NCBI GenBank assembly: GCA_964579265.1
Contig: CAZOFO010000004.1
Span: 1 to 48,297 of the forward strand
Origin: Candidatus Micrarchaeota archaeon
Lineage (GTDB): Archaea > B1Sed10-29
Direction: 5' to 3'
Length of the DNA stretch: 48,297 nt
Part shown: positions 2,045-43,801 of the stretch, in pieces
How positions within the stretch are numbered: the stretch's first letter is position 1
How the letters are laid out: the number at the start of each line of letters is the position of its first letter
Translations under genes and position numbers: made by a program
Notes under the pieces: model-generated
Database searches by the model: none
Seen by the model: the letters and a program-made list of their open reading frames with translations, nothing else
What the model was told of the DNA's origin: nothing

Positions 2045-4672
2045 ATGAATCTCGGAACAACTGAAAAAATAATCGGAATCACCCTCACCCTTCTCGCGTT
2101 AACCCTAGCAATGGGTCTATCAACAGGAACCACCGAAGACACATGGGAAGGATTCATAGAACCGGAAACAGGAGAAACATTCCAACCAGGAGAAATACCA
2201 GCACAAGTACAACCACACTCAGAAGCAGATGCTTACAGATGGGAAATAGTTGAAGACGAATTCTCATTCGGACAAGTAAACGGAAAGGAATACACCTTTG
2301 AAATAGAAGAAACAGGCACCCACACCCTAAAAACTACAGCTGAAAAACTAATATGCGTGGACGAACCTCACATATCACCTGAAGAATTAAAAGAAGAACA
2401 AAAAGATGATTTCTGTAGGAAAGAATTCATTCCAATAGAATCAGATACAGTTTCAATACAAGTAGGAGAAAGTAAAGAAGAAGTCTACTTCAAAGTAACC
2501 GAAGTAGAAACAGAAGACACATACCTAGGACAAGAAGCAGTAACAGAAGCATTAATTAAAAATACTGGAGAAACCAAAGGAACTCAAGATATAGAACTAT
2601 TAATACACGATTCTGAACCTGGAGAAGATCCATTGTTCAATCAAACCAAAGAAAAAGTAGAAATAAAAGCAGGAGAAAGCAAATTAATAGAATTCTCTGA
2701 AGAAGTACCAACAGAAGAAAAATACGTAGGAGAATACAAATCAACCGTATCATCCGAAGACAGCCAAGACACAGATCAATTCGAAATAAAAAACAATGAA
2801 AGCTCATGGAGAGGATTCATAGAGCCAAAACCAGGAGAAACATTCCAACCAGGAGAAATACCAGCACAAGTAGGAAAACACCCTAATCCAGAAGTAAATG
2901 CCTACCTATGGAGAACAGATGACAGAACTTATCCAGCAACAAGTCAAACAAACCACACTTTCAGAATAGAAGAACCAGGACAATACACCCTGGAATCAAT
3001 CGCAGTGAACATGGACATAGAACCACCAAAACCACCTGAACCACCATGGCCACCACAACCACCACAACCACCAGAGCCACCACACCCAAACATAACCACG
3101 GATTACCAAGAAGAATCCACCTCCGGAATAACCCCAATAGAAAAAGACACCGTAGAAATAGAAGTAGAAGAAGAGAAAGAGGAATACGAGCTAAAGATAA
3201 ACTCAACAAAAGGAGGGAACGTAACGGAACCAGGAGAAGGTAGATTCGAATATGAAAATAACACCGTAGTAAACATAACAGCAGGAAATAATCAAGGATA
3301 TGAATTCATGAATTGGACAGGGAACACAAGCACTATAGAAGATCCTGAATCACCAGAAACCAAGATAACAATAAGAGATAACTACACAATCACAGCAAAC
3401 TTCAAAGAAAAACCAGTAGATCAACCTTACTTCGAAATCAATATAACCTCACCAACAGACGGAACAGAATACGAAGAAGATGAAGAAATAAAAATAGAAC
3501 ACAGAGTTATAAACAAAGGAGGCGTCGAAGACACACAAAACATAACATTTGCAGTAGATGAAGATAATAACGTGGAAGAAAAAGAAAAATTCACCTTGAA
3601 ATCAAATGAAACCGAAGAAAACAGTTTCACTTGGACAGCAGATGAAGAAGGAACTTACGAACTAATTATCTCAAGCGAAGATCACACAGACACAGTTGAA
3701 ATAATAGTAGAAGAAGATACAGGAACAGGAGGAGGTGGCGGTGGCGGAACAGGCCCATCCCCAACCACCTACGACCTAACAATAAATACAGAAGGAGAAG
3801 GAGAAATCTCACCAGGAATCGGAACATACACATATACAGAAGGTACTGAAGTAGAAGTGGAGGCAACACCTGAAGAAGGATGGTACTTCCAAGAATGGAC
3901 AGGCGACCATACAAGCACGGAAGAAGAAATCACGGTGACAATGGACGAAGACAAGGAAATAACAGCACACTTCCAGGAAGAAATAGAAAACTACACCCTA
4001 ACAACCAACATAGATGGAGAAGGAGAAGTAGAGATAAATCCAGAACAAGACGAATACGAAGAAGGAACAGAAGTAACACTAACAGCAGAAGCACAAGAAG
4101 ACCATGAATTCACAGAATGGACAGGAGACCACACAGGCACGGAAGAAGAAATCACAATAACAATGAACGAAGACAAAGAAATAACAGCACACTTCACAGA
4201 AAAAGAACCTTACTTCGAGATAGTGAGAATAGAACACGATGAAGAAGTAACAGAAGGAGAAGAAACCACAATAGAGATTAGAATTGAAAATACCGGAGAA
4301 GCAACAGGTGCTCAAACAATAACACTTCATGAACAAGAAAACCCAGAGAACATGATAGACTCTAGAGAAATCACCTTAGAAGAAGGAGAAGAAACCACAG
4401 TAAACTTAAACTGGGAAACAGAACAATTAACCACAGGAGAACACACATTAACCGTTTCAAGCGGAGATCAAGAGATAAATATTGAAATAAGCATAGTAGA
4501 AGCAGAAGAACCTGAAGAACCAACTACAATAACAGGACTGGTAACAGGAGCATTCGCAAACCCAGTAGTAGGGATAATAGCTCTAATAGCATTAATAATA
4601 GCATCAATGGCTCTCTACAAAAGAGAAAATATAAAGAAAAGACTAAAAAACAATCTTGAAAAAGAAGAATAA
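2045..4672 (+). CDS. secreted modular surface protein (two variable-loop beta modules, CARDB-like domains, three InlB-B-like repeats, C-terminal TM)
   Basis: N-terminal signal peptide. Repeats of the type Y.LT....G.G......G.Y..GTEV...A....GW.F..WTGD......IT.TM..DKEITAHF. CARDB-like IENTGEATGAQTITL segments. Ends in ITGLVTGAFANP, a TM helix and a KR tail. Confidence 0.8.
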   Translation: MNLGTTEKIIGITLTLLALTLAMGLSTGTTEDTWEGFIEPETGETFQPGEIPAQVQPHSEADAYRWEIVEDEFSFGQVNGKEYTFEIEETGTHTLKTTAEKLICVDEPHISPEELKEEQKDDFCRKEFIPIESDTVSIQVGESKEEVYFKVTEVETEDTYLGQEAVTEALIKNTGETKGTQDIELLIHDSEPGEDPLFNQTKEKVEIKAGESKLIEFSEEVPTEEKYVGEYKSTVSSEDSQDTDQFEIKNNESSWRGFIEPKPGETFQPGEIPAQVGKHPNPEVNAYLWRTDDRTYPATSQTNHTFRIEEPGQYTLESIAVNMDIEPPKPPEPPWPPQPPQPPEPPHPNITTDYQEESTSGITPIEKDTVEIEVEEEKEEYELKINSTKGGNVTEPGEGRFEYENNTVVNITAGNNQGYEFMNWTGNTSTIEDPESPETKITIRDNYTITANFKEKPVDQPYFEINITSPTDGTEYEEDEEIKIEHRVINKGGVEDTQNITFAVDEDNNVEEKEKFTLKSNETEENSFTWTADEEGTYELIISSEDHTDTVEIIVEEDTGTGGGGGGGTGPSPTTYDLTINTEGEGEISPGIGTYTYTEGTEVEVEATPEEGWYFQEWTGDHTSTEEEITVTMDEDKEITAHFQEEIENYTLTTNIDGEGEVEINPEQDEYEEGTEVTLTAEAQEDHEFTEWTGDHTGTEEEITITMNEDKEITAHFTEKEPYFEIVRIEHDEEVTEGEETTIEIRIENTGEATGAQTITLHEQENPENMIDSREITLEEGEETTVNLNWETEQLTTGEHTLTVSSGDQEINIEISIVEAEEPEEPTTITGLVTGAFANPVVGIIALIALIIASMALYKRENIKKRLKNNLEKEE
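2169..2248 (+). repeat. 80-bp exact direct repeat, partner at 4954-5033
   Basis: caggagaaacattcc...gggaaata is identical in both surface-protein genes when compared by eye. Confidence 0.85.
2812..2872 (+). repeat. 61-bp exact direct repeat, partner at 4934-4994
   Basis: aggattcatagagccaaaacc...gcacaagta is identical in module 2 of gene 1 and the module of gene 2. Confidence 0.85.
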
Positions 4673-4725
4673 GAAAAAAACCATTATCTCTCTTACTAAA
4701 ACCAAAAGAAAAGTAGAGACAGTTA

Positions 4726-4772
4726 TGCAAAAACATAACATTTAAATATGTTACTATCCACAAATGATAACA
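4726..4772 (+). promoter_or_regulatory. promoter block with a TAACAT-N6-ATGTTA palindrome, copy 2
   Basis: Palindrome at 4736-4753. The block is nearly identical to 1965-2012. Confidence 0.6.
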
Positions 4773-4814
4773 CATATTGAATAGATAAAGATACGCTCAC
4801 CGAGAGGGAAAAAT

Positions 4815-7800
4815 ATGAATAGATTCAAAACAACGAAGAAAATAAGCATTATTGTAACAACACTCCTAGCGGTTATTCTAACGCTAGGAATCACACAAGG
4901 ATTCGCAGCAGAGACCACTACAAGCTCATGGGAAGGATTCATAGAGCCAAAACCAGGAGAAACATTCCAACCAGGAGAAATACCAGCACAAGTACAACCA
5001 CACTCAGAAGCAGATGCTTACAGATGGGAAATAATAAATAAACCTTCCTGGAATAGAAAAGGAACTTCTCACACTTATGAAATAAACGAGCCAGGACAAT
5101 ACGTACTAAAAGCCACAGCTGAAAAATTCTCTTTCCCACCTTACCCACCTTACCCACCCGGACCAATACCAAGAACAGAACAAAGTTCAACCCATTCCAG
5201 CAGCTTCGAACCAATAGCTACAGACACAGTTACCATTAAAGTTGAAGAAAAACCTAAAGAAATCAACACATGCAGCGAACTTCAAGACATAGGGAGATCA
5301 GGAGAGTACAAACTAGGAAACGACATAGACTGTAGCGGAATCAATAACTTCGATCCTATAACAGCCAACAGCAGAGACTCATTCTACTTAGACGGACAAG
5401 GCTATGCTATAAAGAATGTTAACATCGATAGACCCGACGAGAGCTACGTCGGAGTATTCGGACACCTGAAATACGACGCACTAGTAAAAAACGTTGGAGT
5501 AGAAGACGTAGATATAACAGGAAGAAACTACGTAGGCGGATTAGTAGGAAGACAATCCTACCAAGCAGAACTTAAAAACACTTACGCCACAGGAACAGTA
5601 GAAGGAAACAGAGACGTAGGAGGACTATCAGGACACAAATACGACGACATAACATGCAGCTGGGCAGACGCCAATGTAAGAGGAAACACAAACGTAGGAG
5701 CAGTAGTAGGAAATGACAGACAAAAGAAATCAGACTACACAAGAAAATCAACAACTCTTGACATAGGCACAACAGGACAAGGAGAAGTAGACATAAACCC
5801 AGAATACGACTACTACAGAAAAGGAAGCAAAACCACACTCACAGCACAACCTGAAAAAGGCTGGTACTTCCAAGGATGGAGAGGAGACCACAGCTGTACG
5901 GATAAAATAGTAACAATAACAATGGATAAAGATAAAGAGATAACAGCACAATTCACAGAAGAAAAAGAAGACCCATACTTCAAAACTAACATAATATCAC
6001 CAAAAGAAGGAGATTACTTCTACGAAGGAGAAACAGTACAAGTCTACCACTCAGTAAAAAACACTGGAGAGATAAAGGACACGCAGAAGATCCAGTTCAG
6101 AATCAACAGCCAATTCGAGGATAAAAAATACTTAACAATAAAACCAGGAGAAACAAAGTACCGTACTTTCACCTGGACTGCAGAAAAAGGATACCACGAA
6201 CTCAAAGTAAAGAGCGAAGACCACCAAGACACAGTAGGAATAAACGTAAAAGAAGAACCCCCAGAATACAAAGAGTTAAAGATCAATAAAGAAGGAAACG
6301 GAACCACACAACCAAAACCAGGAACACACATATACGAAAAAGGAGAAAAAGTAGAAGTAGAGGCAACTCCCGAAGAAGGATGGTACTTCGAAGAATGGAG
6401 CGGAGACCATAGTTGCGGGGACAAAAAAATAATCATAGAGATGAATGAAGACAAAGAAATAACAGCAAACTTCAAAGAAGAACCAACTGAATACAGAGAA
6501 CTTACAATAAACACAGAAGGAAACGGAACCACACAACCAAAACCAGGAACACACATATACGAAAAAGATACCGAAGTGGAAATAGAAGCAACAGCAGATG
6601 AAAACTGGTACTTCGAAGAATGGACAGGTGACAAAGAATCAAACGAGACAAAGATCACACTAAACATGACAGAAGATAAAGAAATAACAGCGAACTTCAA
6701 AGAAGAAGAACCAAAAATGGAAGCAGAACTAATAAAACCATTGGACGGAGCAACAGACGTATCCAAAGAAGCGGAACTAGAAGTAAGAATAACACATTCA
6801 GAAGAAAAAGAGACGAACATCTCATTCATAGACTCAAAAGAAAATAAAGAACTAGGAACCTACAAAAACGTGGAAAACGGAACAAGAGTACAACACACAT
6901 GGAAAGATCTGGATGGAAACACCACATATGAATGGTACGTACAGATGGAATCAGGAAACGAAACCGAAACCAGCGAAACATGGTCATTTACCACAGAGCA
7001 CATACCTGCAGACCAAATATCAGTAAGTGCAGGAGGAGACCGAGTAACCACTGTTAACACACCAATCGAACTAAGAGGAACAGCATCAAGCTACAAATCC
7101 AGAATAACAAAATACAAATGGGACTTCAACGGAGACGGAGAATGGGACTACAAATCCAACACCTCCGGAATCACAACAACAACCTACGACGAACCAGGAG
7201 AATACAAAGCAAGACTACAAGTAATAGACGCAAACAACAACAAAAACCACGATACCGCTAGAATAACCATAAGAGAAGAAATAAGACTAGTTCCAGATGA
7301 AGAAACAATAGTAGAACTAGAAAGAAAAACAAAAAACCAAGTCAGAATCACACCAACCTACATATACGACCCAGAGGGAAATACAACAAGAGTAGAATAC
7401 GAATTCAGGAACACGAAAAGAGAGAGCAGACACCTACAGATAAAAGCTGAAATACCAACAAAAGTAGCAGCCACCACGGAAGACCTCTTAATCCTACCCG
7501 GACCGGATGGAGAAGAGGTAAAAAACCTACCCTACTGGAACGTATCCCTAGCCCCAGAAGAAACAACAACAATAGCTATAGAGAAACAAGGATTCCTACA
7601 ACAAAGACACATAGAAGACATAGAGATAGATATAAGAGAAAGAGAACCAAGAGAACTAGAACCAGAAGAAGAAGTAGAAGAACCAGTAACAATAGGAGGA
7701 CTAGTAACAGGAGCATTCGCAAACCCAGCAATAGGAGCAGCAATACTACTAGCACTGATAATAATATCTCTAGCATACTACAAAAGAGAAGAAATAAAAG

Positions 7801-7829
7801 AAAGACTAGAAGAGAACCTTGAAAAATAA
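4815..7829 (+). CDS. secreted modular surface protein (variable-loop module, short GLUG-motif region, three InlB-B-like repeats, CARDB, FN3-like, PKD, C-terminal TM)
   Basis: Signal peptide. GLUG-type repeats (GRNYVGGLVG, GNRDVGGLSG, GNTNVGAVVG). PKD motif YKWDFNGDGEWDY...TYDEPGEYKARLQV. Ends in GGLVTGAFANP, a TM helix and a KR tail. Confidence 0.8.
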   Translation: MNRFKTTKKISIIVTTLLAVILTLGITQGFAAETTTSSWEGFIEPKPGETFQPGEIPAQVQPHSEADAYRWEIINKPSWNRKGTSHTYEINEPGQYVLKATAEKFSFPPYPPYPPGPIPRTEQSSTHSSSFEPIATDTVTIKVEEKPKEINTCSELQDIGRSGEYKLGNDIDCSGINNFDPITANSRDSFYLDGQGYAIKNVNIDRPDESYVGVFGHLKYDALVKNVGVEDVDITGRNYVGGLVGRQSYQAELKNTYATGTVEGNRDVGGLSGHKYDDITCSWADANVRGNTNVGAVVGNDRQKKSDYTRKSTTLDIGTTGQGEVDINPEYDYYRKGSKTTLTAQPEKGWYFQGWRGDHSCTDKIVTITMDKDKEITAQFTEEKEDPYFKTNIISPKEGDYFYEGETVQVYHSVKNTGEIKDTQKIQFRINSQFEDKKYLTIKPGETKYRTFTWTAEKGYHELKVKSEDHQDTVGINVKEEPPEYKELKINKEGNGTTQPKPGTHIYEKGEKVEVEATPEEGWYFEEWSGDHSCGDKKIIIEMNEDKEITANFKEEPTEYRELTINTEGNGTTQPKPGTHIYEKDTEVEIEATADENWYFEEWTGDKESNETKITLNMTEDKEITANFKEEEPKMEAELIKPLDGATDVSKEAELEVRITHSEEKETNISFIDSKENKELGTYKNVENGTRVQHTWKDLDGNTTYEWYVQMESGNETETSETWSFTTEHIPADQISVSAGGDRVTTVNTPIELRGTASSYKSRITKYKWDFNGDGEWDYKSNTSGITTTTYDEPGEYKARLQVIDANNNKNHDTARITIREEIRLVPDEETIVELERKTKNQVRITPTYIYDPEGNTTRVEYEFRNTKRESRHLQIKAEIPTKVAATTEDLLILPGPDGEEVKNLPYWNVSLAPEETTTIAIEKQGFLQQRHIEDIEIDIREREPRELEPEEEVEEPVTIGGLVTGAFANPAIGAAILLALIIISLAYYKREEIKERLEENLEK

Positions 7830-36334: not shown

Positions 36335-37882
36335 TTAATTTCCCATTAATCCCTTTTCAGATTCAGTTGACCTCCTCTCATGGAGAATAATAATTAATAC
36401 AACAAACACTAGAGAACCAAGCAGTAATTGAAGAATCAAATTACCACCAAGACCACCCTTGAAATAACCGGTAAATCTAGATCTAACCCCCTCATCAATA
36501 TCACTACCATCCTCAACTAGTTCTTCATCCTCTTCTAAAGACTCTAAATCCTCTACTTCAGTCAAAACAAACTCCACACTGTTCTTACCTGAATCAGAAA
36601 CATTTAAAACCTGTTTACAGCTGTAAAAATCGCTTTCTTCGATGCAGCCGTAACCCTCTATATCCCCCTCAGGATCAAGCTCGTAACTTACCAATAGTTC
36701 TCCTGGGAAATGATTTATTATTTCTTCAAAGGACAGAATAATCTCTTCTTCACCCTCAATATGTTCTTCGCGAATATCGATTCTTCTCACATCTAGGCAA
36801 TTCGCTGTGGATTCGGCACTGAAAACACCTGTCTCATTTTTATCCAAAGAAACTTTCATCTGCTCGATTTCAACTTCTCTACATTCATTTAAATCACCTG
36901 TCTCTGGATTGTAATAGAATTCTATCGGTCCGGGTAAGTTCTCATGCGCCTGCAGAGTTACTTCTTTTTCAAAGTGAACTTTGTTCTGAGTTGAGATTTC
37001 ATCCTTATCCTGTTCCCAACCAGTAGTACTCTTCTCCAGCCAGTCTCCATCCCAGGAAGACTCTACAGAATCATTTTCTCCAGGTTCTATCCCTCCTATG
37101 AAGCTATCTTCTTCAATGAGATCCGCTTCACCGATATCTCCATAATTCAGTTCATAGTATAGTAGATCTTCTCCAAGATTGGTTATCTCATCTTTTTTGA
37201 TGTATAATTGTTCTTCAATATCTCCGGATTGAAACTCTAATTCACTATCTGTCAATTCATACTTCAATTCGAAGATCTTTTTGTTACCAGCTTCATCTAT
37301 AAACTCTATATTCTTTTCATATATATCTGAAGATCTATTAAGATCTTCCGTAAGGTTTAAAGTGTATTTTTCACCATCTTTATCCACGATAGGGTAACTA
37401 GCGTTTTTAATTTCGGATAAAGAATCTGCAGTCACTTCTAGTTTCTTTTCAGATTTATTTTCATTTCCCCAGTTTTCCACTATTAACCAGGGATCCCTTA
37501 TTTCAGGGGGTGTATCATCCACTCCTATCTGAATTACCTCTGTCACGGTCCAGCAGACAAATTCAGAGGGACATTCCCGTCCATCAACCCTGAGATAGAA
37601 GCCATCCGATTCAGGCAGTTCGGAAAAATTTAGTTCTGTAGAAACATTGCTTTGATCCTCTTCCAGATCAAATGAAGCTAATTCTTTCCAGCTCCTTGGA
37701 TCCGATTCAGAGTTCCAAAAAATATTCATTTCCTCCAGATTTCTTTCCTCGTAATTAACCTCTAGATTAGTTAAACCAGAGATAAAAGAACCTTCTTCAG
37801 GCTCCTCTATTGACAGGGAAAATGAAAGAGGCATGATCATCAAACATATCAAAGCTAGTAAAATTACTTTTCTCTTCATCAT
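36335..37882 (-). CDS. acidic secreted surface protein with a C-terminal TM anchor
   Basis: Signal peptide MMKRKVILLALICLMIMPLSFS, several Cys pairs, and a C-terminal FTGYFKGG, TM helix and HERR tail. Confidence 0.7.
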   Translation of the reverse strand: MMKRKVILLALICLMIMPLSFSLSIEEPEEGSFISGLTNLEVNYEERNLEEMNIFWNSESDPRSWKELASFDLEEDQSNVSTELNFSELPESDGFYLRVDGRECPSEFVCWTVTEVIQIGVDDTPPEIRDPWLIVENWGNENKSEKKLEVTADSLSEIKNASYPIVDKDGEKYTLNLTEDLNRSSDIYEKNIEFIDEAGNKKIFELKYELTDSELEFQSGDIEEQLYIKKDEITNLGEDLLYYELNYGDIGEADLIEEDSFIGGIEPGENDSVESSWDGDWLEKSTTGWEQDKDEISTQNKVHFEKEVTLQAHENLPGPIEFYYNPETGDLNECREVEIEQMKVSLDKNETGVFSAESTANCLDVRRIDIREEHIEGEEEIILSFEEIINHFPGELLVSYELDPEGDIEGYGCIEESDFYSCKQVLNVSDSGKNSVEFVLTEVEDLESLEEDEELVEDGSDIDEGVRSRFTGYFKGGLGGNLILQLLLGSLVFVVLIIILHERRSTESEKGLMGN

Positions 37883-38841: not shown

Positions 38842-39279
38842 ATGGATATCGAACCAGAAGACGAAACCGAAAAAGAATTCAGCAATCTAATGTTCGATGT
38901 AAAGTACGATAAAGAAGAATTCAATGATCCGGAAACAATAGGTTTACTGCTATACAGACTCTCTAAAGAAAGAAAAAAAACAAACCATCTGTTCAAAGAA
39001 ATAACAGAGAAACTTGAAAACATAGAAGAAGGAATTGAAAACAAATCAACTACAAAAAATACAAATAAAGATAGAAAAAAACAAATGCTTTCAAAGACAG
39101 ATCAAAAAGTATACGATTACGTTAAAAGAAATGGTAAAGTCGACGCAGCCGATTTAAAAGAAGAATTTGGATATAAAGGGAGAAATGCCGCATCCGCAAG
39201 ACTTAACTCCCTGTACAAGAAAGACCTCCTGGACAAGGAACGCGTTGGAAAAAGGGTTCTATACTGGGCCAAGGGGTAG
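38842..39279 (+). CDS. coiled-coil plus C-terminal winged-helix putative DNA-binding protein
   Basis: LSKTDQKVYDYVKRNGKVDAADLKEEFGY..RNAASARLNSLYKKDLLDKERVGKRVLY follows a wHTH pattern. Confidence 0.7.
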   Translation: MDIEPEDETEKEFSNLMFDVKYDKEEFNDPETIGLLLYRLSKERKKTNHLFKEITEKLENIEEGIENKSTTKNTNKDRKKQMLSKTDQKVYDYVKRNGKVDAADLKEEFGYKGRNAASARLNSLYKKDLLDKERVGKRVLYWAKG

Positions 39280-39299
39280 TTCAGCCATAATCCACCTCC
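39259..39299 (-). pseudogene. possible 5' stub of an archaeal histone gene (MAELPLGPV*) with its SD
   Basis: GGAGGTG-GATT-ATG GCT GAA CTA CCC CTT GGC CCA GTA TAG closely resembles archaeal histone N-termini (MAELPIAPV). It overlaps the 3' end of the wHTH gene on the opposite strand. Confidence 0.4.
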
Positions 39300-39403
39300 A
39301 ACACTCTAGAACTTACCCCCTTGCGCCTTCTTTCTCATTTTTTTATATCTCTTGAATTAGAAATACCTGTCTCTAGGATAAGTAAAAAGAAAAAGAAAGA
39401 TTT

Positions 39404-39863
39404 AAATAGAGGTTTCAAATATTTTCACTATCTTAGTTGCAGTGGAATGTTATATCTGGGAAGTCACCGTCAACAACAGTGTACTGCGTACCGGATGTAA
39501 AGTGGTCTTCATCTGTTGATACTAGATCTACGTATGCTTCTTCACCAGCTTCTAATCCTAAATCGAATGATATGTTTCCTCTGTGTTCTCCTTCTGAGTA
39601 TACTGTTACCATTCTATCGGACCCTATATTTACTCCACCAGTATTTACTATTCTTGCACTGGCATTACTTGGGGTTTCAGCTTCGTTTAGGTTGCATTCT
39701 CCTACGGTGAATGCTGTTTGTGCTGTTTCTGCTCCTGGAGGTTTGTCTGCTAGTCCGGCTGCCCAGTACCATACACCTACTGCTGCTATCACTGCAATTG
39801 CTATCAGTAGTACAACTGCTATAACTGGGGATATACCTTTCTTCATATATATTCACCTCCTTT
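39404..39863. repeat. 460-bp exact direct repeat, copy 1 (period 622)
   Basis: Identical by eye to 40026-40485. The ORF-track shadow ORFs are also identical in both copies. Confidence 0.95.
39433..39846 (-). CDS. archaeal type IV pilin (class III signal peptide), copy 1
   Basis: MKKG^ISPVIAVVLLIAIAVIAAVGVWYW prepilin motif, GGAGGTG SD, and a C-terminal Cys pair. Confidence 0.88.
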   Translation of the reverse strand: MKKGISPVIAVVLLIAIAVIAAVGVWYWAAGLADKPPGAETAQTAFTVGECNLNEAETPSNASARIVNTGGVNIGSDRMVTVYSEGEHRGNISFDLGLEAGEEAYVDLVSTDEDHFTSGTQYTVVDGDFPDITFHCN

Positions 39864-39914
39864 AAATTTTGATCTTGAATATTCTCTTTTGGATTATAAA
39901 AAATGAATTGATCA

Positions 39915-39929
39915 CTTATAATACTTTCT
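39915..39929 (-). promoter_or_regulatory. BRE-TATA candidate for pilin copy 1
   Basis: Minus-strand AGAAAG-TATTATAAG about 70 nt upstream of the ATG. Confidence 0.45.
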
Positions 39930-40025
39930 ATATGTTTAGGTAAGCGATCTGGGAGATAGAAACATATAATGATTATAGAAATCCCTAGTGAAAGATAAAG
40001 AGAAACAAAGAAAAAGAAAATTAAA

Positions 40026-40485
40026 AAATAGAGGTTTCAAATATTTTCACTATCTTAGTTGCAGTGGAATGTTATATCTGGGAAGTCACCGTCAACAACA
40101 GTGTACTGCGTACCGGATGTAAAGTGGTCTTCATCTGTTGATACTAGATCTACGTATGCTTCTTCACCAGCTTCTAATCCTAAATCGAATGATATGTTTC
40201 CTCTGTGTTCTCCTTCTGAGTATACTGTTACCATTCTATCGGACCCTATATTTACTCCACCAGTATTTACTATTCTTGCACTGGCATTACTTGGGGTTTC
40301 AGCTTCGTTTAGGTTGCATTCTCCTACGGTGAATGCTGTTTGTGCTGTTTCTGCTCCTGGAGGTTTGTCTGCTAGTCCGGCTGCCCAGTACCATACACCT
40401 ACTGCTGCTATCACTGCAATTGCTATCAGTAGTACAACTGCTATAACTGGGGATATACCTTTCTTCATATATATTCACCTCCTTT
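40026..40485. repeat. 460-bp exact direct repeat, copy 2
   Basis: Identical by eye to 39404-39863. Confidence 0.95.
40055..40468 (-). CDS. archaeal type IV pilin (class III signal peptide), copy 2
   Basis: Identical to copy 1. Confidence 0.88.
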   Translation of the reverse strand: MKKGISPVIAVVLLIAIAVIAAVGVWYWAAGLADKPPGAETAQTAFTVGECNLNEAETPSNASARIVNTGGVNIGSDRMVTVYSEGEHRGNISFDLGLEAGEEAYVDLVSTDEDHFTSGTQYTVVDGDFPDITFHCN

Positions 40486-40525
40486 GAATTTCGTTAATAT
40501 GTTTGTTGTTATGAAACGAATTGTT

Positions 40526-40540
40526 CTTTATAAGTCTTTC
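40526..40540 (-). promoter_or_regulatory. BRE-TATA candidate for pilin copy 2
   Basis: Minus-strand GAAAGAC-TTATAAAG about 60 nt upstream of the ATG. Confidence 0.45.
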
Positions 40541-40541
40541 G

Positions 40542-42458
40542 TTATGTTTTTTTCTTTAAGGATGATTTTTCTTTTTTCTTTTCTTTTTCATCTTCATTTT
40601 TGACTTTTTTAACGATTTTACCTAAAAAACCTGTATTTTTTGATTGATCTTTGTCTTTATCTTTTTCCTTTTCCGTATCTTTCGATTTTTCTTTACCCTT
40701 TACTTCTTCTTTATCTTTCTTCTCTTTTTCGGGTTTTTTATCTTTTTTATCTTTTTTCTTCTCTATCTTCTTTATCTTCTTTTCTTTTCCTGTTAGTTTT
40801 CCTTTTATACCTGTTCCTATCAGTTTTATGTCTTTTCTATCTTTTATTTCTTCTTTGATGTATTTTATGAGTCTTTTTTCCGGTATTTGAAGTCTTTTTT
40901 CCAGTGTCTTTATCTCCATTTCTTTTCCTGGTCTCATTATATCTAGGTATTTCTTTGCTCTTTCTTTTCTTCTTTGTTTTATTTCTTCAGTATGTTCTTT
41001 TATTTCTTCTGCTTTTTTTCTGGTTTTTTTGTGTTCTTCTTCGTCTTTTTTTAGTTTTGAGGTTATGCCTCCTATTTTTTCCTCCATTTTCTTCATTTTT
41101 TCCGATTTTTTCTCTTCTTCGGTTTCTTCGTGCATTTGGCTTTTGTGTATTTTCATTCCTTTTTTGGAGCTGAATTCTTTTCCGCATACTGGACAGGTGT
41201 TTCCTTCAGGTTCTTCCTGTTCTTCGGTCTTTTCTCTGATCTTTTTCATTTTTTCTTTTGCTTTTTCAAGTTTTTCTTTTTTATCTTTAGACATCTTTTT
41301 TGCTTTGGGAGGTTTAATTTCAGATAGTTTTTGTTTTAGTTCTTCTTTTTCTTTTTTAGATGGTTCTTCTTCTTTTGCTTCTTCCACTGCTTTTTCTGCT
41401 TTCTCTATTTCTTGTTTAGTTTTCTTTATTTCTTTTCCTGAGATGTGTTTGGTTTCTATTCCTTGACTTATTTTTCCTAGAAGGGTTTCTATGTTGGATA
41501 GGTCTTTTCCCATTGCTTTGAAGTACTGTCTGGTTTGTTTTCCACTTGCTTTTTCCACTTCGTCCAGTTGTTTGTCTATTTCATCTATTTTTTCATATAG
41601 TTTATCTATTGATGCTTCCATTTCTTTGCTTGGTCCTGATCTGTCTATACCTTCTATTCTTTGTTTTATCTTGTTTAGGGAGTTCTTTATATTTTCCATT
41701 TCTTCTTTTGTTTCTTTTCTTTTTTCCTTTTCTCTTTCCCTTGCTTTTCTTATCTGTTTGGTTAAGTCTTCTATTTTTTGCTCGAGCTGTGTTTCTCCTT
41801 CTACAGTGGTTTCTTCAATGGTTTCTCTGATCTCTTGTATTTGTTCTTTTAGTTCTTTTCCTTTTTCTTCCATTCCACTGTATTTTTCTTCTTGTTTTTT
41901 CACGAGTTCGTCTGGTAGTTCCTTTAGTTGTTCCTGTAGTGATTCTATATCTTTTTGAAGTACTTCAGCTTTAGGTGCGTGTTCCTCTGGTTTTTCTTGA
42001 GCTTCATCTATTTTTTCAGTCATTTTTTCTATTTCTTCATCTAGTGATTCTATTTCTTTTTCAAAGGAACTTATTTTTTCTTCTTTTGGTATATGGTGTA
42101 GTGCTTTGTTTATTTCGTCTATTCTTTCTTTGAGTTCTTCTCCTGTTGTTTCTTCTTTTTTGGATTTTAGTTTTTGTACTTCGTTTAGAAGTTTTGATTG
42201 TGATTCCGCTATTGTTCTTATGATTTCGTTAGGTGTTTGATCTTCTTCTGTTTCTTCGGCTGCTTCCTGTATTACTTCGGTGAGTCTTTCTATTTTATTA
42301 TTTATCTCTTTGTTCTTTTTCAGGTTTCTTTGTACGAGTTTTTCGAGTTTTTCTTCTTTTCCTTCATCCATTCCTCTACTTTTTTCTTTTTCCAGTTCCT
42401 GTATTTGTGATTTTAGTTTTTTCTGTGTTTCTTTGAGTTCTTCTGCTTTTTCAGCCAT
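40542..42458 (-). CDS. long coiled-coil protein with one C2H2 zinc finger and a K-rich tail
   Basis: Heptad-rich K/E sequence containing CPVCGKEFSSKKGMKIHKSQMH. No Walker motifs. Confidence 0.7.
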   Translation of the reverse strand: MAEKAEELKETQKKLKSQIQELEKEKSRGMDEGKEEKLEKLVQRNLKKNKEINNKIERLTEVIQEAAEETEEDQTPNEIIRTIAESQSKLLNEVQKLKSKKEETTGEELKERIDEINKALHHIPKEEKISSFEKEIESLDEEIEKMTEKIDEAQEKPEEHAPKAEVLQKDIESLQEQLKELPDELVKKQEEKYSGMEEKGKELKEQIQEIRETIEETTVEGETQLEQKIEDLTKQIRKAREREKEKRKETKEEMENIKNSLNKIKQRIEGIDRSGPSKEMEASIDKLYEKIDEIDKQLDEVEKASGKQTRQYFKAMGKDLSNIETLLGKISQGIETKHISGKEIKKTKQEIEKAEKAVEEAKEEEPSKKEKEELKQKLSEIKPPKAKKMSKDKKEKLEKAKEKMKKIREKTEEQEEPEGNTCPVCGKEFSSKKGMKIHKSQMHEETEEEKKSEKMKKMEEKIGGITSKLKKDEEEHKKTRKKAEEIKEHTEEIKQRRKERAKKYLDIMRPGKEMEIKTLEKRLQIPEKRLIKYIKEEIKDRKDIKLIGTGIKGKLTGKEKKIKKIEKKKDKKDKKPEKEKKDKEEVKGKEKSKDTEKEKDKDKDQSKNTGFLGKIVKKVKNEDEKEKKKEKSSLKKKT

Positions 42459-42546
42459 TTGGAAGGTCCTCCGCTCTGTTTATTATTTCCAGGTAAAACC
42501 TGTTTAAGTAAAAAAGGAGTTACTTAATAAAAAGGTTTTTGATTTT

Positions 42547-43320
42547 TTATTCTTCTTCGTCTTCTCCAGCTATATATTTTATCCATATTATCCATAGCAG
42601 TAGTGCCCATATTATTAGTAGTGTTCTCCATAGGAAGTCGTGTACCAGGTCGAGGAACTGTATTCCTCTTGCCCATCCTGCATATATTGTTGTTGAGAGC
42701 CTTACTATATTCATTAGATGAACTAGAGGGATTGATAGCACTATTCCAAGGAATTTATCTTTTTTATTGGCATCTGGATAGGCTATTATCAGTGAGACTA
42801 TGGCGAACATTCCTATCCATCCAACGCATTCAGGTATTATGTCCACCTGGAATGGTTCATCCGTTCCTTGTATGTCTATGAGCGCGGGTGAGGTGTATAC
42901 TATATGTCCCTGTGCTCTCAGGTTTTTAGTGTATTCGTCCACTATATTTTCATCTTCTGGGTGTAGTGAAGTTGCTAGAAATTGTCTTGATCCTTCTATA
43001 TCTCTTTCTTCCATCCCTATTCTTGTTAGTTTTTCACTGGCATCTTCAAGGACTGGAGAATCTTCCGGTATTATTATAGAGTGTTCGTAGAACTGAGTAT
43101 CGACACTTGAGGCTTGTAGTACTGCATTGGTGTGCATTGCTACCTGTCTTCTTGGAAAACGCATTTCTAGGTTAAGAGAAGATATGAATGACATTAGTAT
43201 TGCGGCTAGAGCTAATACTGATGCGAATTTAGCTATCTTTATTATTTTTTCTTTTTCTTGGATTTTCTCAGTGAATTCAGATAATCTAGATTCTTTTATT
43301 TTTTCAGAAAGTTTCTTCAT
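42547..43320 (-). CDS. archaeosortase/exosortase family transpeptidase
   Basis: IIPECVG (Cys), MNIVRL (Arg) and LVHDFLW (His) catalytic triad set within TM helices. Confidence 0.85.
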   Translation of the reverse strand: MKKLSEKIKESRLSEFTEKIQEKEKIIKIAKFASVLALAAILMSFISSLNLEMRFPRRQVAMHTNAVLQASSVDTQFYEHSIIIPEDSPVLEDASEKLTRIGMEERDIEGSRQFLATSLHPEDENIVDEYTKNLRAQGHIVYTSPALIDIQGTDEPFQVDIIPECVGWIGMFAIVSLIIAYPDANKKDKFLGIVLSIPLVHLMNIVRLSTTIYAGWARGIQFLDLVHDFLWRTLLIIWALLLWIIWIKYIAGEDEEE

Positions 43321-43354
43321 GACTTTTCACTCTTTAAAGAAGTTTTTTGATTAT

Positions 43355-43801
43355 TCAGAACTGTGTTTTTCCATATTCTTGGCTTCTACCTACTTTTCTT
43401 CTGTTGTAGCTTCTTTTCTCAATATTTTCCTGCATGTATTCTTCTATATGTTCCTTGAAGGATTTATTAACTTTATATCTTTGTGATTGTTTTTTCAATA
43501 TCCCTACATTGGTCATTAGATCCAGGAAAGTTTTTGATTCTTTTCCAACGCAGAATATTATGTTTTTTTCTTCTGTCGTCCCGTTGTCAAGTAGGAATTG
43601 TAGTGTTTGTATACCTGTCTTGTTATTTTTGAGTTTCTCCAGCATCCTGGTCAGAGATTGTTTTGAAAACTCTTCTGACTTTGTTGCGATGATGTGATTG
43701 AGTTCATCGCATTTATGGCATCTTCTCCATCCTTCGAAGTTCTCGTTTGTCGCCAATTGTTTTACTGGTGCTTCGCAGTTCGAACATTTTACTGTTTTCA
43801 T
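43355..43801 (-). CDS. Zn-ribbon protein with a probable C-terminal helix-turn-helix/winged domain
   Basis: CSNC...CHKC, followed by FLDLMTNVGILKK...RYKVN. Confidence 0.55.
   Translation of the reverse strand: MKTVKCSNCEAPVKQLATNENFEGWRRCHKCDELNHIIATKSEEFSKQSLTRMLEKLKNNKTGIQTLQFLLDNGTTEEKNIIFCVGKESKTFLDLMTNVGILKKQSQRYKVNKSFKEHIEEYMQENIEKRSYNRRKVGRSQEYGKTQF

Follow-up and report, generated by a model that had tools for sequence, protein, structure and literature searches.

A conserved C-terminal module in surface proteins of a DPANN archaeon that encodes an archaeosortase of no named subfamily

Surface proteins of the window and their C-termini

The window analyzed here is a stretch of 48,297 nucleotides from Candidatus Micrarchaeota archaeon (contig CAZOFO010000004.1, assembly GCA_964579265.1). 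Two tandem genes on its forward strand encode secreted surface proteins of 875 amino acids (aa; positions 2045-4672) and 1004 aa (4815-7829), and the C-terminal tail that these two proteins share, termed the type-A tail, is the subject of this work. Two genes on the reverse strand bear on its interpretation, one for a secreted protein of 515 aa (36335-37882) and one for an archaeosortase of 257 aa (42547-43320). A first-pass annotation had proposed that the tails of all three secreted proteins form a new sorting signal with a TG[AY]F-type motif, and that this motif may define the substrate class of the archaeosortase.

A C-terminal transmembrane (TM) helix is found in only three real proteins of the window, namely the 875-aa protein (ending in ...EEPEEPTTITGLVTGAFANPVVGIIALIALIIASMALYKRENIKKRLKNNLEKEE), the 1004-aa protein (...EEVEEPVTIGGLVTGAFANPAIGAAILLALIIISLAYYKREEIKERLEENLEK), and the 515-aa protein (...SRFTGYFKGGLGGNLILQLLLGSLVFVVLIIILHERRSTESEKGLMGN). 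None of these three carries a PGF-type tail, in line with the first-pass annotation, which had reported no PGF-like tail in the window. Its description of the sequences also agrees with ours: both large proteins have an acidic or proline-containing spacer, followed by ITGLVTGAFANP or IGGLVTGAFANP, a hydrophobic helix, and YKR, while the 515-aa protein has FTGYFKGG, a TM helix, and HERR. However, the tails do not end at YKR or HERR, as had been assumed; 15 to 17 residues come after the TM helix.

The 875-aa protein, delineated by its open reading frame (ORF) and by family scans, begins with a Sec-type signal peptide and an N-terminal 'WxGFIEP..GETFQPGEIPAQV' domain that occurs twice. A PPxP linker is next, and three InlB B-repeats of divergent sequence, Ig-like domains (Big_7/CARDB), and the type-A tail follow. 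Its domain matches are to Flg_new_2 (2.1e-44), CARDB, and Big_7. Alignment places the juxtamembrane motif TTITGLVT-GAFANP at residues 827-840 (4523-4564, forward strand), with the core G835-x-F-A-N-P840. The adjoining TM helix, VVGIIALIALIIASMALY (4565-4618, forward strand), was assigned from hydropathy and from the AlphaFold2 (AF2) helix of the paralogue. It is followed by the cytoplasmic extension KRENIKKRLKNNLEKEE (4619-4669, forward strand), which the alignment assigns to the type [KR][KR][ED]x[IVM][KR]x[KR]LxxNL.

The 1004-aa protein, defined by its ORF, family scans, and AF2, comprises a signal peptide, a GLUG region, three InlB B-repeats, a Big_7/CARDB region, a PKD domain, a membrane-proximal beta-sandwich, and the type-A tail. 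Its juxtamembrane motif in the alignment, PVTIGGLVT-GAFANP, covers residues 957-971 (7683-7727, forward strand), with the core G966-x-F-A-N-P971. The TM helix AIGAAILLALIIISLAYY lies at 7728-7781 (forward strand) according to hydropathy and AF2, and the cytoplasmic extension KREEIKERLEENLEK (7782-7826, forward strand) was delimited by alignment and segment identities. The N-terminal signal peptides of the two proteins, MNLGTTEKIIGITLTLLALTLAMGLSTG... and MNRFKTTKKISIIVTTLLAVILTLGITQGFAAE..., were judged by reading the sequences, with no predictor.

The two proteins are tandem paralogues with 42% overall identity and a near-identical N-terminal block, and the DNA encoding their tails is ~80% identical. 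The shared tail therefore reflects common descent and amounts to a single observation.

The two paralogues, although less than half identical overall, have nearly the same N-terminal domain WEGFIEP..GETFQPGEIPAQVQPHSEADAYRWEI (2138-2248 and 4923-5030), and a further-diverged internal copy lies at 2834-2940 in the 875-aa protein. The near identity of the N-terminal domains suggests recent gene conversion or domain shuffling. The InlB-repeat region of the 875-aa gene (~3840-4190) has a collapsed or branched assembly graph with short unitigs and a depth of up to 158, compared with a baseline of 23. A 393-bp skip joint (3487>3881) is present in four of four read runs. An alternative continuation at 4189, also found in four runs, leads to another C-terminus with a TM helix, KRRW, and an acidic cytoplasmic domain of ~270 aa. 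This alternative C-terminus is assembled in a 156-kb contig (L027, 11397-14462) as a 1021-aa variant of the 875-aa protein, which could represent either a strain-level anchor swap or a second locus connected via the repeat.

The window is AT-rich (33-42% GC), its encoded proteins are rich in Glu and Lys, and identical or related contigs originate from soda-lake metagenomes. Among the nearest-relative metagenome-assembled genomes (MAGs), PULY01, PWFL01, and PWMI01 are labelled 'Candidatus Iainarchaeum archaeon', JBMCFZ01 is labelled 'archaeon C5M10_49', and CAYLXZ01 is labelled 'Candidatus Micrarchaeota archaeon'. The lineage is a halo-alkaliphilic DPANN archaeon that carries an Iainarchaeum or Micrarchaeota label in public MAGs.

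Conservation and distribution of the type-A tail

We aligned 13 tails from at least six genomes, taken from relatives of the 1004-aa protein and their contigs in soda-lake MAGs. The consensus reads eePTTI.GLv.GA[LF]A[NSE]Pa.G, followed by the TM helix and yyKRE[DE]IK.RL..NL. In each of the 13 sequences, homology covers the last 50-75 residues and reaches the stop codon. Outside and in the membrane, the columns conserved at ≥90% are G, G, A, P, G, L, and L. The extracellular ones among them, G, G, A, and P, belong to the signature G...G-x-[LF]-A-[NSE]-P-x-x-G, which adjoins the TM helix. In the cytoplasmic part, K, R, E, K, R, L, N, and L reach the same level of conservation. The 13-residue cytoplasmic motif opens with a basic pair (KR, KK, or RR), and these basic residues are not terminal: 13 to 36 residues lie beyond the TM helix across the tails, the longest extension being that of L014a. 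The TM segment itself has Kyte-Doolittle values of 2.3-3.2 in 17-19-residue windows.

Conservation is unevenly distributed along the C-terminal region. Mean pairwise identity is 34-39% in the membrane-proximal ectodomain, 40-46% in the linker, 52-58% in the juxtamembrane motif, and 38-44% in the TM helix, and it reaches 62% in the cytoplasmic segment, the highest conservation within the last 190 residues. Neither the cytoplasmic motif nor the GxLAxP motif occurs without the other in ~300 kb of related sequence, and the spacing between them is fixed.

In the 1004-aa protein, AF2 models the last 186 residues with a confident beta-sandwich (predicted local distance difference test, pLDDT, above 90) and a disordered acidic linker. 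For the tail, AF2 proposes with low confidence a short helix over GGLVTGA, a break at FANP, and one unbroken helix after the proline, from residue 153 of the model to the C-terminus. A Foldseek search of this model against the PDB returned generic beta-sandwich matches only (E ≥2e-3, TM-score ≤0.36). The amphipathicity of the cytoplasmic motif, measured as helical hydrophobic moment, was not significant against shuffled sequences (p = 0.1-0.4). Among the NCBIfam CTERM models (PGF, PEF, VPXXXP, PIP, PEP, IPTL, and others), none was matched above its cutoff; the best matches to the tails were PEP-CTERM (E = 2.1-3.8; 8.6-9.4 bits, cutoff 16) and PExPT-CTERM (E = 0.54). Against NCBIfam and Pfam, neither the tails nor the 186 membrane-proximal residues gave a significant match; DUF7549 appeared in one sequence only (E = 0.002) and below its cutoff.

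The string T-G-[AY]-F does occur within 15 residues of the C-terminal TM helix in all three window proteins, as would be expected if the two large proteins and the 515-aa protein shared a tripartite signal of this type. However, the threonine is present in only four of the 13 tails and is replaced by I, V, or L in the others, and the alignment of the orthologues already contradicts such a class. A local hidden Markov model (HMM) of the 13 tails, run against 2233 six-frame ORFs from the window and 25 related loci, scored members at ≥76 bits and everything else at ≤6.6 bits; the tail of the 515-aa protein, which the first-pass annotation had counted as a member, received no score at all. By chance, the three-of-four word TG.F is shared by 14% of random and 8% of real pairs of 15-residue segments, and the loose TG[AY]F pattern is also found internally in the 515-aa protein. 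A signal common to the three proteins is thus hardly credible. On the available alignments, TG[AY]F is not a motif class, and what stands of the proposed sorting signal is a family-specific C-terminal module that is real, strongly conserved, and matched by no known CTERM model.

As defined by its ORF and hydropathy, the 515-aa protein has a different C-terminal anchor, with FTGYFKGG at 36452-36475, the TM helix at 36383-36451, and the post-TM segment HERRSTESEKGLMGN at 36338-36382, all on the reverse strand. It has no relatives in JGI metagenomes and no family match in NCBIfam and Pfam scans.

An HMMER search of 1.84 billion representative proteins with a five-tail profile gave 13 matches at E ≤0.001. 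Eight of these are real and all belong to this family, while the remaining five are multi-stretch repeat matches. A word-indexed homologue search with only the 56-aa tail found no match, as three 5-mers were shared by no candidate. Among the 1.84 billion representatives, every carrier is a mosaic protein of the same InlB-repeat/PKD/CARDB family, encoded at one syntenic locus directly upstream of a tRNA-splicing endonuclease gene, with one or two per genome. In the partial genomes covered, two tandem copies are present in the window and in L011, L012, L013, and L014, and one copy is present in L015 and L030.

Domain homologues of the carriers end differently. P0051 and P0104 have PGF-CTERM ends, with only 4-8 residues past the TM helix. 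P0091 ends in a type IX secretion system (T9SS) type A domain, as P0083 likely also does, given its nearly identical tail, and others are without an anchor. TM anchors with long cytoplasmic tails are also found in the L027 variant, from the same population, and in the related matches P0006 and P0069.

The archaeosortase and its gene cluster

The gene at 42547-43320 encodes an archaeosortase, as the first-pass annotation had proposed. Its product matches TIGR04178 with 45.8 bits (cutoff 23) and PF09721 with 27.5 bits (cutoff 25.7), and it retains the invariant Cys, Arg, and His: C165, R207, and H227 are invariant in ten homologues. The protein consists of an N-terminal TM segment, an extracytoplasmic insert of ~100 residues, and the catalytic core, and its cytoplasm-facing parts are poorly conserved. 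A database of 5.8 billion clusters contained only ten homologues, and genome and metagenome scans revealed further relatives at 43% and 38% identity.

None of the named subfamilies (ArtA-F, pacearchaeosortase, XrtA-Y) was reached. The best match was XrtH, with 60 bits against a cutoff of 86, and the enzyme is far below cutoff for the ArtA, ArtB, ArtD, ArtE, and pacearchaeosortase models. The relatives at 43% and 38% identity likewise match no named subfamily. The archaeosortase is predicted to be active and belongs to a clade outside the named subfamilies.

The sortase gene is part of a cluster (38842-43801) whose order is kept in relatives. On the reverse strand, the cluster in the window contains genes for a 148-aa Zn-ribbon protein (43355-43801), the sortase, a 638-aa protein with a coiled coil and a C2H2 finger (40542-42458), and two type IV pilins with identical genes (40055-40468 and 39433-39846); a 145-aa winged helix-turn-helix (wHTH) protein is encoded on the forward strand (38842-39279). 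The corresponding loci in relatives (L025, 9165-15763; L006, 9535-14724; L007, 3340-8127) show a ~145-aa Zn-ribbon protein, the sortase, a coiled-coil protein of 570-810 aa, one to four type IV pilins, and a wHTH protein of ~145-153 aa. Even L025, a non-halophilic 568-kb contig whose sortase is 38% identical, keeps this order. The gene order suggests a functional link of the sortase clade with the pilus genes. The pilins were also considered as sortase substrates and rejected for lack of a C-terminal TM helix. No paper linking archaeosortases with Iainarchaeota or Diapherotrites was found in a literature search.

The pilins end in a conserved F-x-C. In the window, a tandem duplication of ~470 bp (39402-39875 and 40024-40497, with a 622-bp period and 6 mismatches) accounts for the two identical genes of 137 aa. 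A near-identical C2H2 zinc-finger peptide (NTCPVCGKEFSSKKGMKIHK) is found both in the 638-aa protein and in the cytoplasmic domain of the L027 variant. Among the related loci, a HerA/DUF87 ATPase gene upstream of the arginyl-tRNA synthetase gene in CAYLXZ01 (L006, 655-4546) contains a LAGLIDADG intein that is absent from the window lineage, and in L007 a LAGLIDADG gene stands on its own near the pilins.

Four assemblies contain both a type-A tail and the sortase, namely the window, JBMCFZ01 (L013 and L016), CAYLXZ01 (L014 and L006), and PWMI01 (L015 and L020), and the two also co-occur in the JGI metagenomes 3300027784 and 3300000557. They are not adjacent: no type-A tail lies within 10 kb of ~12 sortase loci, the nearest carrier end in the window (7829) is ~35 kb from the sortase, and in the MAGs the two are on separate contigs. 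In the distant sortase-bearing genomes (L025, at 38% identity, and L021, with a short form), the 1.84-billion-protein search detected no tail, although divergence beyond detection is possible.

Retained anchor or cleaved sorting signal

Any interpretation has to accommodate the observed anatomy of the tail, its conservation pattern, its restriction to one family and one locus, and its co-occurrence with the sortase. We favor the reading that the tail is a lineage-specific C-terminal anchoring module of one mosaic Ig-repeat family of adhesin- or S-layer-like proteins. The tail would act as a type-I anchor that is retained and has a functional cytoplasmic helix, a reading to which we give about an even chance of being correct. 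The module would start with the acidic/Pro/Thr linker and a short hydrophobic juxtamembrane stretch ending in G-x-[LF]-A-[NSE]-P, in which the proline may serve as a helix cap. The TM helix, of fixed length (~20 residues), would be followed by the KR/KK/RR pair as a stop-transfer signal, and the helix would then carry on in the cytoplasm with the conserved [ED]x[IVM][KR]x[KR]LxxNL. After export by Sec, the protein would remain membrane-bound with type-I (bitopic) topology. The cytoplasmic segment would be kept for use in the mature protein, e.g., for docking to a cytoplasmic or membrane partner or for oligomerisation, and the archaeosortase would act on other, not yet seen proteins.

The conserved cytoplasmic motif is the feature that best separates the hypotheses. 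To our knowledge, all sortase-type signals described so far have a short cluster of Arg/Lys as their post-TM region, and this cluster is lost on cleavage. In the type-A carriers, no other part of the C-terminal third is as well conserved as the motif, and this conservation implies a sequence-specific interaction. The sortase is unlikely to be the reader of the motif, given the poor conservation of its cytoplasm-facing parts. Retention also fits the fixed pairing of the two motifs, the length of the tails past the TM helix (13-36 residues, against 4-8 in the PGF-CTERM homologues), the single family and locus, the distance of all carriers from the sortase, the lack of Haft attributes 5 and 7 (see below), the unbroken AF2 helix of low confidence, and the TM anchors with long cytoplasmic tails in other surface proteins. 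From these sequence patterns we infer retention over cleavage, as well as some role for the cytoplasmic segment, with a confidence that leans neither way.

Several observations weigh against a retained anchor. Wherever the tail was found, in assemblies or metagenomes, the sortase was present too; this co-occurrence carries little weight because all cases come from one narrow, vertically related clade with conserved synteny. An intact archaeosortase needs at least one substrate, and the large proteins are the most prominent candidates with a signal peptide and a C-terminal TM helix. The other substrates that the retained anchor assumes were not found in the ~65 kb of this genome inspected. Furthermore, the extracellular motif is conserved, adjoins the TM helix, and contains a proline as in PGF, PEF, and PEP signals, and it is preceded by an acidic/Pro/Thr linker as in known substrates. 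Finally, domain homologues elsewhere have PGF-CTERM or T9SS signals at the same position.

To place the tail among sorting signals, we compared it with the eight attributes listed by Haft, together with a gene-neighbourhood criterion that, for dedicated systems, takes the place of attributes 2, 7, and 8 (bioRxiv 10.1101/2023.06.07.544157). The type-A tail shows five of the eight: it is located at the C-terminus in 13 of 13 tails (attribute 1), it has at least three near-invariant signature residues, these being G, G, A, and P and not T-G-[AY]-F (attribute 3), its TM mid-domain is strongly hydrophobic (attribute 4), its carriers have an N-terminal signal peptide (attribute 6), and homologues elsewhere are without the signal or have another (attribute 8). 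Attribute 5, two to five basic residues at the end, is lacking, as 11-34 more residues come after the basic pair. Attribute 7, carriers that are otherwise unrelated, is lacking as well, with a single family at a single locus. Attribute 2, the number of copies per genome, is borderline at one or two, and the proximity of enzyme and target that marks a dedicated system is not seen.

Known archaeosortase systems provide the model for an alternative reading. ArtA cleaves PGF-CTERM proteins, which are then re-anchored to lipid. By analogy, the type-A tail might be a new signal with few substrates that is cut at or near G-x-[LF]-A-[NSE]-P by the clade-specific archaeosortase and re-anchored, e.g., to lipid, a possibility that we consider doubtful. 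The conserved cytoplasmic helix could then tentatively be seen as a retention or recognition element that acts before cleavage. In that event, the sorting domain would have four parts instead of three, G-x-[LF]-A-[NSE]-P being complemented by a post-TM recognition helix, KRExIKxRLxxNL, and would belong to a new DPANN archaeosortase clade dedicated to major adhesin- or S-layer-like proteins; this proposal, too, we regard as rather unlikely.

For a sortase that keeps the catalytic Cys, Arg, and His and falls in no named subfamily, an undescribed cognate signal is expected, and the lack of any CTERM model match, the five shared Haft attributes, and the co-occurrence in four assemblies and two JGI metagenomes are all consistent with the type-A tail being that signal. 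Additionally, the tails that diverge most (P0136 and P0134) belong to genomes whose sortases are the most divergent halophile ones (51% and 43% identity). Yet co-occurrence within one narrow clade says little, and the carriers, one or two per genome, are all homologous and never lie beside the sortase. The basic cluster is not terminal, and the strongest conservation falls in the cytoplasmic segment, which would be discarded on cleavage. The L025 and L021 genomes, in which a sortase is present and a tail was not detected, argue in the same direction, with the reservation about divergence given above.

The archaeosortase might instead serve another class of tail, e.g., VTPIT[PA]ASG[IL]T followed by a TM helix and a Lys-rich end, in which case the type-A tail would be unrelated to it. 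A 1021-aa NosD/CARDB protein (L020, 6403-9468, PWMI01000023.1) ends in ...VVVTPITPASGITGISLTALLLASIGIYYYFQNTKKEERAKSL, and its gene is followed by the Zn-ribbon gene and then by the sortase gene, two genes downstream. In the same MAG, PWMI01, a 751-aa GLUG/InlB protein (L015, 1-130, PWMI01000094.1) ends in ...IIVTPITAASGLTYALVIALIAIAIALYTLNKKKGK. Unrelated carriers and adjacency suit Haft attributes 2, 5, and 7 better than the type-A tail does. This class comprises two sequences from one genome, however; neither the window nor the other loci showed such a tail, and no NCBIfam model matches it. Adjacency in a single genome could also arise by chance (roughly 1-4% by our estimate). We regard this alternative as improbable, though far less so than a common TG[AY]F signal.

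Significance and comparison with known systems

The DPANN lifestyle is one of attachment to other cells, for which giant Ig-repeat surface proteins are the likely organs of contact. If the tail is a retained anchor, its cytoplasmic peptide marks an unstudied link from surface adhesins to the cell interior. If it is cleaved, the archaeosortase system would extend to DPANN archaea, with a signal architecture that includes a conserved post-TM element; current detection rules would miss such a signal because they expect a short terminal Arg cluster. Either way, the window encodes an archaeosortase of a clade with no subfamily model or assigned substrate, whose conserved linkage to a type IV pilin cluster is noteworthy.

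The closest described parallel is the PGF-CTERM/ArtA system of the Haloferax volcanii S-layer glycoprotein (PMC6098224). Both systems have a large secreted protein with a low-complexity linker, a short Pro-containing motif at the C-terminal TM helix, and basic residues, and in both an archaeosortase with Cys, Arg, and His is encoded in the same genome. Unlike PGF-CTERM proteins, the type-A carriers have no PGF and no match to the PGF-CTERM model, and the sortase scores only 25.6 bits against ArtA (cutoff 75). In place of a terminal Arg cluster they have a conserved post-TM extension of 13-36 residues, and the carriers are one or two homologous proteins, not many unrelated ones.

With the tripartite class described by Haft (PEP-, PEF-, VPXXXP-, PIP-, GlyGly-, MYXO-CTERM, and others), the type-A tail shares the signature, the TM helix, the basic residues, the signal peptide, and the existence of homologues in other lineages with other signals (bioRxiv 10.1101/2023.06.07.544157). 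It differs from this class in attributes 5 and 7 and in gene neighbourhood. Plain type-I anchors, such as the C-terminal TM anchor of Sulfolobus SlaB (cited in PMC6098224), have a signal peptide, a large ectodomain, a single C-terminal TM helix, and a positive-inside stop-transfer pair, with no processing assumed, and in all of these the type-A carriers resemble them. In contrast to such anchors, the type-A tail is unusually conserved on both sides of the membrane, with GxLAxP outside and KRExIKxRLxxNL inside. Conservation on both juxtamembrane sides argues for specific interactions rather than a passive anchor.

On the enzyme side, the nearest known relative is XrtH, with which a core of ~100 residues aligns (60 bits, E = 2.7e-16). 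Unlike XrtH, the enzyme is archaeal, remains below the 86-bit cutoff, and has an extra N-terminal TM segment and an insert of ~100 residues. The partner signal of XrtH is IPTLxxWG-CTERM, to which the type-A tails are not similar. What is new here is the tail and the sortase clade, both of which lie outside NCBIfam and Pfam, while the C-terminal TM anchor itself is of a kind known from archaeal surface proteins.

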